64,000 nucleotides of DNA from assembly GCA_963732385.1 (NCBI GenBank), contig CAVSZB010000003.1, positions 226,167 to 290,166 on the forward strand, in the 5' to 3' direction. The number at the start of each line of letters is the position of its first letter. Within the stretch, counting starts at the first letter, position 1. The stretch comes from an uncultured bacterium (GTDB lineage Bacteria; Krumholzibacteriota; Krumholzibacteriia; LZORAL124-64-63). This document shows, in pieces, positions 27,701 to 36,700 of the stretch. The position numbers are program-made.

Positions 27701-30700
27701 TGATCGACTTGGAATATACTCGGTCTTTATTCCGCGGGTTGTTGAGCAATTCCACCGATATCGCGATCGGAGAGTTTGCTCAAGAGACGCGAATCCAAGG
27801 CCGGACGCGGCAAAAGGCGGATCTTGTGGTCCGAGCCAAAGTAAGCAAGAAGATCGTTCTGATCGAAGCCAAGGCCGTCGGCGTCGAGATCGATTCTACA
27901 AAGAGAATCAAGGAATGTTGCGACAAAGCAAGCGATTGGAAGTCGTGCGCTGCCTTGGGTAATCCGATCGTCGTTGCGATCATCGGCGGCTTCTTCACCG
28001 AAATTGGGATTCGTAGCCTGGAGGCTTCGGGGATCACGGTCATTTGGGAGCATAGGCTGAGCGACCTTGAGAGGATTCTATAGTGGAGAGTCGAAACTAT
28101 GTAAGCCTCTTCTCCGGTGCTGGAGGCTTAGATATTGGTCTTGAGCAAGCCGGTCTAAAGGCTGTTTCTCAATGCGAGATCGATCCGGTGTTCTGCGGCA
28201 CGCTCGCCGCGAATCAGGGATTTACGAAGGAAGATGGGCGCCGGTACTTCGTCGGCACGCAGTTGTTGAATTCAGACATTCGGGAAATAGGGGGAGGGGA
28301 CCTGTGTCGGGGCGAGCGCGTCGATGTGGTAGTTGGTGGTCCGCCATGCCAGGCCTTCTCGAGTGCGGGCAGGCAATTGAGTGTTCTCGACCCTCGGGGT
28401 CTTCTCGTTAACGAGTTCGTTAGGATCGTCGATGAAATCCGCCCCAAGGTGTTTCTCTTGGAGAACGTGCGAGGGCTTGTGACTGCGCGCGACTCAAACG
28501 GAGAGCCTGGCGGAGTCCTCCACGGACTTCTCGATCGATTCTGGCGGCATGGATACAGTTGCAGGGCGACTCTGCTCAATTCTGCAGATTACGGTTCATG
28601 TCAAAGACGGGTGCGGTGCTTCATTCTTGGGACCTCGGCAGGACGGGCTCCCGTTTTCCCCGAGCCCAGCCACCAGAGACAATCCGGCTTGATTCATCGT
28701 CGATGGAACACGTTGGCCGATTTCCTGCGAATGTATGCCGATGCCAACGAAGCCAATTACACATATCCGACCGAGTCTTTGGCGAGTCAGTTGCGTGTAC
28801 TTCCGGACGGAGCAGGGCTGAAGAGTGTAGGTAGGGCCGAAGCGACTCGGCCAGGCGGTCACTGGGGCTACAGGCAGGGCACGTTCATTGCCGACCTGAC
28901 GTTACCAGCGCGAACGGTAACGGGATCTGCAAGTCAGGACTGGGTGCGGTGGAACGGCGCACTGCGTCGGCTGACACTTCGAGAGGTCATGATGCTTCAG
29001 GGGTTTCCGGTCGATTGGGACGTGCGAGGGACTAAGGCCCAGCAGTACAAGCAGATTGGCAATGCCGTCCCAACTGTGTTTGGCAGGGTTCTGGGGGAGC
29101 ATATTCAGGTGATCCTCAATGATTTCCCGACGACCAAAGCTGAAAAGATCGAAATGCCGAATACCCTTCAAGGCTACATTGCCTACACAAAGAAGGACGA
29201 GGCGCGAAACGGTGATTCGCGAGTTGTGCATAAAAGGTTTGCGAAGGCCTGAAGGGACGCGAAGCGCGTAGCTGGGAGGGATTGCAACGCATATCTCAAC
29301 AGCGCGCCGGAATGGCCTTCAGCAGGCTGTTCATTAGCCGCGGGTTTGCCCCGTACGGTTTCTTCGGCCGCGGGGCTATCACGGATGCCCGGTAGTCTAC
29401 GCTCGCGGCGAGGCCTTCTTCGCCTCCTTCCACGCCCCCCGAATGATCACCATCGACGCATCGTCAGGATCCTCGCATCCGCAGGATTCGACCAGAGCGC
29501 GGTTGTGCCAGAGGCCGAAGGCATTGCGGATGCCGGTGCCCCAGCCGTGGTGGTACATGATCAGATCCTCCTCGGCGATCGCGGCCAGTGACGCGAGGTC
29601 GTCCGGCGACATGCCCTTCAGGAGGATCGCGACAGCCTCGTCCAGCGTGTCTGGCATCGGGAAATCGTCGTGAGGCGACAGGGGGTCTTCCGGATCGTAG
29701 TCAGGAATCAAGCCTGACAGCCATTCGTGGCAGTCGTCGATGGTCGGGAAGCGGCCTTGGAGGACGACCTCGCCGGAGATGATCACGGCCGGCAGCGCGC
29801 GGACGCCGAGCTCATCCAGGTGGGGCTGATTCGGGAGGCACGCTCCCACCGTCGCGTTGACGCCTGCGGTGATCAGCGCTTCGAGGAGGAATCCCTGCAG
29901 GGGACCCCAGCCGTCGCCATCGGCGCTGATGTACGTGATGCTGGGAATTCCACTCATTGTTCTGGCTCCTTGATGCACGTTGAAAGTGATGGGGAACGCC
30001 GCCGGTTCCATTGCATTTCTTCTACTTCGCTCTGCGTGCGGCAACGAATTCCCTCAACTTCTCTGCCCCGCCTTTCACTTTGCAGTAGCCGCAGCCGAAC
30101 TGGTCGCTGCTTGAGCTGATCATCAAGCTGTGGTTGGTGCCGGGGCAGTGGGCGCGCCAGTGGTGGGGGCCTTCGCCGGACGGTTCGGGGTTGAGGCCTA
30201 GCTCGCGGGCGACGACGACGAGTTGTGATTCTTCGGCGCGTGCGGCTTCGGCGTTGGAGGAGAACTCCGCGTCGAGGGTGGCGAGGATGCGTCCGTACTC
30301 CTCCTCGCTCAGCAGGCCGGGGGCGGTGAAGCCGGCCGGCCAGGAGGCGAGGGCCCGGGAGGCGGTCAGGATCTCGAAGAGTTCGCAGGCGGCCGAATGA
30401 TCGTCGGGGTGTGGGGGCGAGATCACGGCGCGGCCTTCGTGGTGGTCGCTGCGGAACCAGAGCTCATCGGCAGCCACGGTGCGGCGCAGGAAGGCGGATT
30501 CGGGATACGAGCCCAGCAGGAACGATACCTCGTACGTGCAAACGGGTACTGCGTCGCCAGGGACAGGGGCTCTGTTGGCGGCGTTCTTGAGCCAGGGGTC
30601 GGCGGTGATCTCGGTCACTGGCTCTGCCGGTTTGGGGGCAGGCGGCTGCGGAGCGGGTTCGGGTTCGATTTCCTCGGGGCGGGGTTCGGGGATGTCCTCG

Positions 30701-33700: not shown

Positions 33701-36700
33701 ACAGTTAATCTACACTCGACGGTGTCTAGTGTCAATATAAATGTTCGGCTGGGATCGCATTATGGCTTAAGAGACTTCATGACAAGCCATTGCGCAGCCA
33801 GATGGCCGCCTCGGCCAGCATTTGCTGCACGAGCGTCCAGCCCGCGCGGCGCCGGTCGGCCCGGAAGCCCCGCGCCTCGTCCAGGTAGAGGCTCTTCTCC
33901 ACCTCGATCATGACCGACTGCAGCCGGGGGTCGTGCGCGGCCCAGAAACTCGACGGGACGTAGCTGCCGGCGAAAGGGGCGTTGGGGAGCCAGGCGATGT
34001 CGCGCAGGGGGCCGGCGCGCCAGGCTGCGATGAGGGCGTAGGGGTCGTAGTGCTTCGCCATCAGCGCTGCGCGGGCGGCGGGGGGGAAGTCGGGGGCGCG
34101 CAGGTCGTCGCCATCGACCGTGCGCAGGCGGACGGCGCCCATGCCGCTGGCGGCCATCGACTCGTCGGCGTCGTTGCGGAAGCGCTCGGGGTCGATCACC
34201 AGGCGGCTCAGGCGGTTCACGAACAGGGTGGCGCCGAGGGCGCGGGCGGGGTCGAACAGGCGGTCGGTGAGGTGGTCGGTGATCGTGGCGAGCTCGCGGT
34301 CGACCTGTGCGGGCGTCGCCGTGAACGCGCGGCGGACGGCGGCCGGGATGGCGCGCGACGCGTGCGGGATGTGCACGATCAGCGGCAGCGCGGAGCCGCC
34401 GGTGGGGGGCAGGATCTCGAAGCCTCGGGTGTTCACGACGCGGACCTCCTGGATGGGGGCTGCGCCGGGGGGCGGTCTGCGGATGAAAAGACCCGAACGC
34501 GGCACAGCGTTCGGGCTCGCGTCGGCGAACCGCTGTCCCGGCCGTTTTAGCTCGTTGTTTAGCGTGGCGGCAAGCTGGCCGGCTCAAATCGCCACGAGGC
34601 ATTCAGGTTAGTGGGGGTGGGGGGGGAACGTCAAGGCGGTGGGCCGGCAAACTGGCGCGCGGGATGGCCCGACTTGCGCCGGGGCAAGTCCGTGGCGCGG
34701 GGCGCGGCGTCGCCAATTCTCTCACAGCTTGTGAGAGAATTGGCGACGCGCCTAGGTGACGCCAAACCAGCCCATGCCTCCAACCAGTGTCGGCCAGACG
34801 CGAAGGTGACGCGCGCTGGAGTCGCACTTCCGGCGGTGACCGGGTGGTGCGGCAGCTGCAGCGCCCTCGTGGGTGCCAGATGGCGGTCGTCACCGCATTT
34901 CAGGGGATCTGGCATGAATGACGCTTTTGGCGTTCCGGCATGGAGGGCGGGAATCGCATTCAGAGAAGCGCGCCGGGGCTGCGCGAGGTCGGAGCAGACG
35001 CCGGCCTTCCGGAGGATTATCGGGCGGTGCTCGAGGATATCCGCGCGCGCATCCGGACCGCAAAGGTCGGGGCGGCGCTGTCGGTCAATCGGGAGCTGGT
35101 CCGGCTGTACTGGGAGATCGGGGAGCTCATTGTCCGGCGACAGGATGACGCCGGGTGGGGGCGGGCGGTCATCGAGCGGCTGGCGGCGGACATCCAGCAG
35201 GCGTTTCCTGGGCTGAAGGGGTTTTCGCGCCAGAACATCTGGCGGATGCGAGCCTTCCATGTTGCGTGGAGTGGACCGCGCCCAATTCTCGCACAGCCTG
35301 TGCGAGAATTGGCGAAAGGGGAGCTGCCCCCGCTGCTGCTTGAAATTCCATGGGGACACAACATACTGCTAATGCAGCAGTTAAAGGACAGAACGGAGCG
35401 ACTTTGGTACGCCCACCAGACCATTGTCAACGGCTGGTCCCGCTCCATGCTCCAGCACTGGATCAGGTCCGGACTGTATGCCCGCCAGGGTTCGGCGGTC
35501 ACGAACTTCGAAACCACGCTGCCGCCTCCGCAGTCGGACCTCGCCCGACAGATCGTGCGTGATCCCTACAGCTTTGACTTCCTCACCTTGCGCTCCGACG
35601 CCGCGGAGCGCGAGCTGGAGCGGGGCCTGCTGGCCAACATGCGCCGGTTCCTGCTCGAATTGGGCACGGGTTTCGCGTTCGTCGGGCAGCAGGTTCCGCT
35701 CGAAGTCGACGGCGAGACGTTCTACCTCGATCTCCTGTTCTATCACCTGACGCTGCGCTGCTTCGTCGTGATCGAGCTCAAGACAGCGCGGTTCCGGCCC
35801 GAGTTCGCCGGCAAGATGAACTTCTACCTGTCGGCGGTGGATGATCGGCTGCGGCATCCGGAGGATCGGCCCAGCCTCGGTCTCATCCTCTGCCGCTCGC
35901 GCAGCCGGGTGATCGCGGAATACGCGCTCCGGGACCTGAACAAGCCGATCGGGGTGAGTCGCTGGGCCACGCGACTCGTTCCGGAACTGCCCGCCGAGTT
36001 GCGCGGCGTCCTGCCGAGTCCGGAACAGATCACGGATGGACTGGGGCCGCGTGGCGTGTAAGGGCTGGACCGGTCAGGTGAAACGCAACAAGGGACGCTT
36101 TCCTGCAGACTTCATGTTCGAGCTGACGGGAGACGAGACGGCAGAGGTGGTCGCAAATTGCGACCACCTCTCCAAGTTGAGGTATTCCAAGGCGTTGCCG
36201 TGTGCGTTCACGGGACACGGCGCCATCATGGCCGCGAGCGTGCTCAAATCGCAGCAGGCGGTCGAAATGAGCGTGTTCGTGGTGAGGGCATTCGTGAAAC
36301 TCCGTCAAGCGGTGCTCCAGCACGCGGAGTTGTGCCGGCGACTGGACGATTTGGAGCGCCAGTTCGGCTCGCACGACCGGCAGATCGTGGCTCTGGTGGA
36401 GGCGATCCGGCGCCTGATGAGTCCGGCGGCCGTACCCAGGCGTCGACGGATCGGTTTCGGGGTTGGCGAGCCTTAATAAGCGCCCCAACGACCCGCCAGG
36501 CCCACCCACGCCGAGCCCGACCGCAGCGTGACAGTTGGCGTTGGCCACGCCGCCGCCAAACGTGGACCTGAGTTTGTCGGCCGAGCCCGGCGCCATGATG
36601 ATGTGGCCGCCCTGATGCGGTGGCCATGGCGATTGTTTTCGATTATTCAAACAATCGCTAATAACGTCCTGGTCTATTATCGCGGTCGCAAGCAATGGTG

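Follow-up and report, generated by a model that had tools for sequence, protein, structure and literature searches.

Zinc-ribbon cores, a further domain (domain A) and an FGase-like gene form a recurrent pool behind predicted SAM-I, SAM-I/IV or SAM-II aptamers, often accompanied by a second or divergent metK. In the window analysed here, the whole stretch of 64,000 nucleotides to whose positions all coordinates refer, two such aptamers stand before cargo of this kind, and in the explanation that we favour, with moderate confidence, the locus is a copy, now decaying, of a modular low-SAM cassette that moves horizontally and here lies within a defence island. The occurrence of the zinc-ribbon family behind three structurally different SAM switches points to a mobile part of a SAM-shortage response.

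Two SAM-II aptamers and their cargo

Genes under SAM riboswitches are usually taken to be methionine, sulphur or SAM genes, and SAM-II aptamers (RF00521) typically precede metA, metZ or metK in alphaproteobacteria. The crystal structure of SAM-II shows UUGC paired with GCUAA, a U-rich loop, P1 and a pseudoknot. As the survey's finding had stated, the window contains two full-length SAM-II aptamers, aptamer A (34526..34605, minus strand, 64.3 bits) and aptamer B (31447..31525, minus strand, 70.6 bits), each matching 79/79 model positions against a gathering score of 36. The core pairs of aptamer A are unchanged, and the 4 core pairs of SAM-II are invariant in all 25 of 25 aligned rows; P1 is 87% paired, with the two-sided changes at 5/6 pairs that mark covariation, while P2a reaches 52% pairing over all rows, owing to length differences among variants, yet is complementary in both window copies. 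That these are the genome's only SAM riboswitches holds for the four classes searched (SAM-IV, SAM/SAH, SAM-III and SAM-VI lay outside the genome-wide search): the window's genome, G000, gave the two RF00521 matches and none at E<=0.01 to RF00162, RF01725 or RF01826, the last of which matched no control genome either.

Both aptamers share the full-length match and invariant core of canonical SAM-II, and aptamer A its terminator platform. Canonical copies before methionine genes turned up in the same scans, and in relatives of the host they precede metK or a Cys/Met PLP enzyme, whereas the cargo in the window includes no known methionine or SAM gene; domain annotation bears out the earlier statement that none lies within the stretch. 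The host's two metK genes carry no SAM-II aptamer.

At the level of DNA sequence, each aptamer directly precedes its own cargo. Aptamer A follows a candidate sigma-70 promoter (34605..34634, minus strand; -35 at 34634-34629, -10 at 34610-34605, 18-nt spacer), which was read by eye, has 8/12 consensus matches, falls under the scan threshold and shows a 17-nt spacer in one near strain. Downstream of it lies an intrinsic terminator (34481..34516, minus strand), including the previously noted GC hairpin and U-tract at 34516-34491, whose 5' arm can pair alternatively just upstream, an OFF-switch platform. Folding gives this terminator a pairing probability of 0.41 in a SAM-free proxy and 0.98 in a SAM-bound proxy. 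Aptamer B lies ~30 nt past the stop of a VWA-domain gene and ~60 nt before the gene that follows; here, Shine-Dalgarno access is 0.49 in the SAM-free and 0.49 in the SAM-bound proxy, and folding predicts no switch. From riboswitch knowledge and folding, plentiful SAM would form the pseudoknot of aptamer A and terminate transcription of the FGase-like gene, and by analogy with known riboswitches aptamer B would hold its own gene off; a drop in SAM would bring both genes on.

The cargo of aptamer A is an amidohydrolase-like gene of the FGase family (PF05013; 33777..34436, minus strand) with an in-frame internal deletion of ~141 nt near 34034-34048. These nucleotides exist in the copy of the same-genus genome G002, which is intact and matches PF05013 over the whole model. 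Identity with the N-formylglutamate deformylase HutG (TIGR02017) was rejected, as the G002 copy scores 64.8 bits and 5/5 homologues score 37-65 bits against a cut-off of 278.75. PF05013 is common to both, but the FGase-like gene stands outside a hut operon and adjoins metK and SAM aptamers, and no HutF above cut-off was found in the genome. In relatives the gene likewise recurs behind predicted SAM aptamers, for instance after tandem SAM-II matches in L200 and L202, and it follows metK in L116 and L199.

The gene behind aptamer B (30022..31385, minus strand) encodes domain A, a linker, a beta-meander domain and a CHC2 zinc ribbon. What had been described as two genes, g00634 and g00633, is one gene of 454 aa when intact: both pieces align end to end with the 454-aa protein P0002, with one frame change, a one-base indel near 30910, and the missing base is present in near-strain short-read contigs from 2/4 runs. 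Probably co-transcribed with this fusion gene is a thioredoxin-like gene with DUF6794 (29397..29957, minus strand; ~186 aa from an ATG with a Shine-Dalgarno sequence); DUF6794 is present in 1/208 genomes of the phylum.

Between the two aptamer-headed cargoes lie a gene for a MerR-type HTH protein of 218 aa (33009..33665, minus strand, PF13411) and the VWA-domain gene (31555..32903, minus strand), ~448 aa when intact. Directly before the MerR gene, a promoter scan placed a sigma-70-type site, TTGACA-17-TAGATT (33707..33735, minus strand; 1 site against a shuffle mean of 0.5), which is identical in G002. The VWA gene is not 5'-truncated, as had been thought, but runs from 32903 to 31555 with one-base frameshifts near 32722 and 31727, both absent in 3/4 short-read runs of near strains. 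MerR-VWA pairs occur in 15 genomes besides G000 and G002, with an aptamer nearby in one of these 15. As part of the explanation that we favour, and with the same moderate confidence, we regard MerR-VWA as a separately promoted module.

Together these genes have three frameshifts within ~2.7 kb, whereas 20 conserved genes from other parts of G000 (7,744 aa) show 1 frame change and 1 stop in all; this excess inclines us towards real decay or a local weakness of the assembly. The cassette is broken in the window and in G002 alike. The damage makes the window copy a poor experimental model. RNA contigs of one metatranscriptome overlap parts of the stretch and are uninformative on transcription, strand and ends.

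A zinc-ribbon family behind three riboswitch classes

A word-seeded search returned 15 proteins including the 454-aa fusion P0002, as reported before; the family is, however, far larger than this, since 146 of the best 150 HMM rows (50%-identity clusters) match the core. The C-terminal part has the fold of the DnaG zinc-binding domain, in agreement with the earlier assignment (1d0q, Z 8.3, rmsd 2.0 Å, 60 aligned residues, model of family member P0019). Across 98 sequences, zinc ligands C161 and C179 are invariant and H166 and C182 are conserved in at least 90%; conservation is confined to the ligands and structural residues, with no conserved catalytic residue beyond the ligands. The C-P-x-H...C-x2-C ligands and fold are those of the primase CHC2 domain (1d0q, PF01807), but the family lacks TOPRIM or any other primase domain and its ribbon is fused to an N-terminal beta-meander domain. 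DnaG primase was therefore rejected as an identity, with no TOPRIM match from Pfam or NCBIfam in the window protein, P0002 or the 98 members; nor did these proteins give any other Pfam or NCBIfam match.

The nearest ESM Atlas clusters were CHC2 fingers (0.89), which we take as no more than a lead; the N-domain gave nothing usable there, and Foldseek against PDB and viral models gave no match at E<=0.001. TriX immunity protein, the best match to the N-domain, reached a Z of just 5.2 and was not accepted as a relative, and a WGR-like nucleic-acid-binding domain (Z 5.3-5.4) came from a low-confidence model and is absent from the top rows of the confident one. The full fusion was modelled with low confidence (pLDDT 57), and no fold match came up for domain A. 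Domain A is found in 8/208 genomes of the phylum, where it neighbours FGase or comes immediately after aptamers; a word-seeded search for its short forms returned the window's own piece alone. We guess that the zinc-ribbon protein is a non-enzymatic nucleic-acid binder.

The link to SAM riboswitches, claimed earlier for relatives of g00633 with different aptamer classes, proved stronger than first described. Among 84 family loci with at least 300 nt of upstream DNA, which are kin rather than independent cases and are dominated by two clades, Rfam models place an aptamer upstream of the gene and on its strand in 61, at a distance of no more than 350 nt in 53, and the aptamers belong to SAM-I, SAM-I/IV and SAM-II. 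After clustering at 70% identity, 17/28 clusters have an aptamer. Home-built profiles raise the count to 66/84, with no aptamer at the remaining 18. The loci were chosen by a pattern found in about a third of the family (47-55/151 proteins), and 80/122 metagenome hits were retained. Of the aptamer hits, 100/102 lie upstream on the gene's strand, with 326 kb searched upstream and 356 kb downstream, and reversed DNA as a control gave 0 hits. The aptamer usually stands directly before the family gene, and most genomes outside the alphaproteobacteria have no SAM-II-like match anywhere but at this gene; many SAM-II-like matches score under the Rfam gathering score (23-35 bits).

In the family tree the aptamer classes interleave, with a SAM-I locus inside a starred clade among SAM-II loci. 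The survey's finding had proposed independent recruitment; repeated exchange of riboswitch class is borne out, but the tree does not distinguish separate recruitment from a single old link that later underwent swaps. Eleven loci hold two SAM-II-like matches within 450 nt, with the terminator first and an RBS hairpin second in the L082 fold, and L206 and L029 have mixed SAM-I/IV and SAM-II leaders. Such arrangements resemble the tandem and bi-mechanism riboswitches (SAM-II/SAM-II, SAM-II/SAM-V, SAM-I/IV + SAM-II) that the available part of PMC9481103 ties to sulphur and SAM genes; unlike these, aptamers A and B lie 3 kb apart and form no tandem.

metK is present in 16/111 loci and abuts the family gene in 12. 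Twelve of the 16 come from one Halomonas-type clade, and in one clade the family gene abuts a second metK. These metK genes carry canonical motifs, and several copies in the Halomonas-type clade look truncated. Modelling the Halomonas-type core together with two adjacent-MetK chains gave a score of 0.00, which says nothing either way. In the large SAM-I/IV clade no SAM gene lies nearby. The proposal that the family is a player of SAM homeostasis is supported as far as expression under SAM riboswitches goes; the role itself we can only infer, with metK adjacency mostly from one clade and no conserved catalytic residues beyond the zinc ligands.

Defence islands and competing explanations

The cassette is flanked in the window by type II R-M, AbiE, PDC-S02 and SoFic genes: a convergent pair of XamI-like nuclease and C5 methyltransferase on one side (27130..29252, plus strand), and YhcG/PDC-S02, ORF6N and Fic (SoFic) genes on the other (34940..37975, plus strand), which we treat as context only. 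Elsewhere, family loci lie near MmeI, HsdM+GmrSD, EcoEI R, BREX PglZ/BrxL, WYL, ARG, ARPP, TIR and RES genes, with a C5 methyltransferase near L205 and dnd genes near L030. Several loci with ARG, ARPP or WYL, and one member with a TY-Chap3 match, recall the ARG/ARPP/WYL/vWA/TY-chaperone conflict neighbourhoods described in the available part of PMC9503650; those systems, however, are ADP-ribose centred, unlike the family, and the overlap concerns a minority of loci. The word "riboswitch" is absent from the main text of that paper. Searches of plasmid and phage collections gave no match to the family, and of the viral scans one yielded no locus and another yielded 1, whose contig is identical to one in a bacterial MAG.

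These surroundings would suit a guard against phage SAM lyase, in which the riboswitches read a SAM drop and release SAM resupply and/or an effector protecting or replacing SAM-dependent defences (R-M, BREX), and T3 SAM lyase does lower SAM and disable BREX according to the available part of PMC11842806. However, DNA methyltransferases were found in 3/37 long family loci against 26/236 host-genome windows, and therefore show no enrichment near the family in this rough, noisy motif test; PADLOC 2.0 gave no defence-model match for P0002, P0019, MerR or VWA at E<=1e-4; the protein has no evident toxic or catalytic domain; and defence islands collect accessory genes of every kind. We consider such a guard rather unlikely. 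It is also unlikely that low SAM is an infection alarm, in which mobile cassettes would sense, through three riboswitch classes, the loss of SAM to phage SAM lyases and bring on a spare MetK and a zinc-ribbon effector that protects methylation-based defence or stops the phage; if true, this would be riboswitch-triggered immunity.

Quite unlikely, in our estimation, is hitchhiking, whereby island cargo settled behind leaders of accessory metK operons and inherited a SAM control that is useless or merely silencing. The patchy distribution (2/208 phylum genomes and 0/300 further genomes of another order), frequent decay of loci, the large number of unrelated genes that follow such aptamers as cargo and the 18/84 loci lacking a detected aptamer all agree with it. 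Yet the family gene mostly occupies the first position after the aptamer, and an aptamer is retained after a class change; throughout one clade that has no metK close by, the aptamer and the terminator/RBS hairpin persist; and MerR-VWA, a control pair taken from these islands, has an aptamer close to it in just that single genome of 15. Finally, the original anatomy, in which six genes from aptamer A through the DUF6794 gene would form a single operon with two gates, is very unlikely: every gene is on the same strand, a terminator sought between the FGase-like and MerR genes was not found, and the order MerR-VWA-aptamer-domain A recurs in G015, so that a single transcript may cover the downstream part, but the genes number five, a promoter-like site precedes MerR, and MerR-VWA is mostly found without an aptamer.

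The low-SAM cassette that we favour would rescue methyl-donor supply and its consequences: an extra MetK would remake SAM, the amidohydrolase would free methionine from an N-acyl form (a guess as to substrate), and the zinc-ribbon protein would act as a non-enzymatic, nucleic-acid-binding accessory.

The link between this gene family and SAM riboswitches is absent from the literature that we found, a body from which most subscription papers and the gene-context tables of PMC2864571 are missing. A family matching nothing in Pfam, NCBIfam or PADLOC keeps its SAM sensor while the class shifts among three folds, which is strong circumstantial evidence for a job done only at SAM scarcity, on mobile islands. 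Halomonas alimentaria DSM 15356, Halomonas tibetensis and Bradyrhizobium diazoefficiens offer cultured test cases. The family also opens to experiment a standing question, whether bacteria perceive a loss of SAM caused by phage and respond to it.

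The two aptamers and a five-gene cassette

Exactly two RNAs in the window match Rfam, both SAM-II riboswitch aptamers (RF00521, full model) on the minus strand, confirming the survey's finding: aptamer A (34605-34526, 64.3 bits) and aptamer B (31525-31447, 70.6 bits). RF00521 has no further match in the host genome (3.82 Mb, 96% complete), and a genome-wide search found no SAM-I, SAM-I/IV or SAM-V, so that they are indeed its only SAM riboswitches among these four classes. In a 25-row alignment of window, island and canonical copies, read with the pairing scheme of the published SAM-II structure, the four core pairs are invariant (25/25); P1 reaches 87% pairing, 5/6 of its pairs showing two-sided changes, and P2a, over length variants, just 52%. 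The RNAs themselves belong to known riboswitch classes. Both metK genes of the host lie on contigs other than that of the aptamers; the second, which lacks a SAM-II aptamer, stands directly 5' of a gene resembling those of Cys/Met-metabolism PLP enzymes (L004:218-2754).

The six-gene operon that the survey had placed under both aptamers resolves instead into five genes and no single operon, because TTGACA-17-TAGATT, the sole promoter-like match in 6.2 kb scanned, lies directly before the MerR gene, and g00634 and g00633 are parts of one fusion gene. Together, g00634 (83% identity) and g00633 (61%) match the 454-aa protein P0002 from end to end with a single frame change, and the missing base is present in near-strain contigs from 2/4 runs. 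The VWA gene, earlier thought 5'-truncated, spans 32903-31555 (minus strand) with two one-base frameshifts, absent in 3/4 runs of near strains. Thus aptamer A precedes the FGase-like (PF05013 amidohydrolase-like) gene, MerR-VWA has its own promoter-like site, and aptamer B precedes the fusion gene and then a thioredoxin-like/DUF6794 gene. The FGase-like gene is ~141 nt short of the copy in G002, a same-genus genome, which matches PF05013 over its whole length. The G002 cassette breaks at places other than the window's and is cut off within the fusion gene, most of which, like the restriction-modification (R-M) pair, is replaced there by other DNA. In that assembly, aptamer A is doubled in tandem together with the 5' portion of the FGase-like gene (L022:17550-18114), making three aptamers in all, which may reflect a real duplication or an assembly artefact. 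The window indels may be assembly errors or real decay; for comparison, 20 conserved genes elsewhere in the host genome hold one frame change and one stop.

The cassette is flanked by an AbiEi/AbiEii pair (22141-23663), a type II R-M pair where GC is low (27130-29252; 0.57-0.59), and PDC-S02 (YhcG), ORF6N and SoFic (34940-37975), and its surroundings are therefore a defence island.

A rare zinc-ribbon family behind SAM riboswitches

The family of g00633, the core, had been put at 15 proteins, a number that stands for the word-seeded search; searching 50%-identity representatives with an HMM produced 225 matches at E<=1e-30, and among the best 150, 146 fit the 200-240-aa core and 4 were Sel1-repeat contaminants, so that the family is far larger than 15. 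No family in Pfam, NCBIfam or PADLOC covers it. A structure model of member P0019 (98 sequences, pLDDT 94.6) predicts the primase-type zinc ribbon already proposed at the C-terminus (DnaG, 1d0q, Z 8.3, rmsd 2.0, 60 aligned) and, at the N-terminus, a beta-meander domain whose best structural match is Z 5.2. Among polar residues, only the zinc ligands are invariant or nearly so, suggesting a binding protein rather than an enzyme. Elsewhere, the N-terminal domain stands alone or doubled, and further members carry a fused Sel1, TPR or TY-Chap3 domain (L096:590-1010; L049:3732-4868; P0061; P0073). The family is rare, occurring in 2/208 genomes of the host phylum and 0/300 further genomes of the Halomonas order, with no match in the plasmid and phage collections searched.

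Pattern scans, with a pattern present in about a third of the family, yielded 30 loci in 27 genomes (Pseudomonadota, Myxococcota, Thermodesulfobacteriota, Acidobacteriota, Planctomycetota, Verrucomicrobiota, Fidelibacterota and one archaeal MAG) as well as 122 metagenome loci, the best 80 of which were kept; the sole viral locus, a duplicate of L047, was dropped, and L082 was added later. RF00521 and RF01725 were run on all 27 whole genomes at E<=0.01, and Rfam on metagenome loci at gathering or E<=0.05, except on L076 and those with hardly any DNA upstream. As the survey had suggested for g00633 relatives, a SAM aptamer lies upstream on the core gene's strand in 61 of the 84 loci whose upstream DNA measures 300 nt or more, at most 350 nt away in 53; by cluster, the window included, the link holds in 37/55 at 90% identity and 17/28 at 70%. 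With home-built profiles, derived from the family's own aptamer matches and circular for its members, the count rises to 66/84. The 102 matches of these profiles, from 326 kb of upstream and 356 kb of downstream DNA, comprise 100 upstream of the gene and 2 downstream, all on its strand, with 0 in reversed DNA; L078 has a further minimal aptamer, read by eye. Many SAM-II-like matches score 23-35 bits, under gathering, with the core kept, and in most non-alphaproteobacterial genomes the only such matches stand at the core gene.

Three classes occur at core loci: SAM-I (L067, L073), SAM-I/IV (a Rhizobiales-like clade and others) and SAM-II. In a quick tree of 50 rows with many open forks, the class labels require 15 changes, and a SAM-I locus nests in a starred clade beside SAM-II loci. 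The second family member in the host phylum has a weak SAM-I/IV match just upstream (L186, E 0.018). Expression platforms look intact in predicted folds of L082 (terminator first, RBS hairpin second) and L052 (terminator/RBS hairpin with alternative pairing); tandem SAM-aptamer designs of this kind have been described before (PMC9481103). We found no description of the link between core gene and SAM riboswitches in the literature; gene-context supplements of PMC2864571, outside that check, could list such genes as hypothetical.

Cargo partners of the aptamers

metK occurs in 16/111 loci and abuts the core gene in 12, all of Halomonas type; several copies look truncated. In L116 the order is core gene, small ORF, metK, FGase-like gene. 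Within the host's family the FGase-like gene, which is not HutG, occurs in 9/208 genomes: it follows vWA and a divergent MetK in L199, lies within a tandem-SAM-II MoxR-vWA operon in L200, and follows tandem SAM-II in L202. Domain A, the g00634 part, occurs in 8/208 genomes, either next to the FGase-like gene or immediately after aptamers (L029, L202, L245); its fusion to the core recurs in P0133, and it adjoins the core in L078. Among 15 control genomes with the MerR gene besides the host and G002 (2-10 kb inspected in each), an aptamer was nearby in one, between VWA and a domain A gene as in the window. Thus the aptamer moves together with domain A, the core and the FGase-like gene rather than with MerR-VWA.

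SAM-II matches in 10/60 relatives precede metK, a Cys/Met enzyme, an AAA ATPase, a MoxR-vWA-MetK operon or unknown genes. Tandem SAM aptamers precede MoxR and vWA-peptidase genes in L030:7631-12572 (adjoining dnd phosphorothioation genes), L200:4677-12121 and L206:7380-12147 (converging on a MerR-VWA-like pair), with a divergent MetK in L030 and L206. Another SAM-II aptamer lies between a WYL regulator and a 788-aa double AAA ATPase with PADLOC IetA-like matches, beside the ATP synthase operon (L026:6891-10567); in two genomes from another family of the host's class, one precedes a TPR-like protein and an acyl-CoA synthetase (L024:8216-9218, L025:7271-8274). The Burkholderia sRNA Bp2_287 matches weakly (27-29 bits, gathering 70) opposite tandem SAM-II leaders at L200:12004-12130 (plus), L202:755-897 (minus) and L194:367-509 (minus), the last two being one place; its family may be related to the antisense of such leaders.

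Proposed response to falling SAM

In a folding proxy, pairing probability of the aptamer A terminator rises from 0.41 with the 3' pseudoknot strand free to 0.98 with it held (SAM-bound-like), which fits a transcriptional OFF switch; by the same proxy, Shine-Dalgarno access at aptamer B is unchanged (0.49 vs 0.49). For aptamer A and the family in general, bound SAM very probably holds the cargo off, and falling SAM would switch it on. Such a switch could serve as an alarm for phage SAM lyase, an enzyme known to disable BREX (PMC11842806; PMC7877911); defence genes often neighbour family loci, but methyltransferases occur in 3/37 long loci vs 26/236 host windows (rough motif test), and we therefore consider this bolder reading unlikely. 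Hitchhiking is less likely still. We lean towards the cargo pool being a mobile rescue kit against SAM shortage, in which a spare MetK would be one component, the FGase-like amidohydrolase may, as a guess, release methionine from an N-acyl form, and the zinc-ribbon protein would be a putative nucleic-acid-binding accessory.
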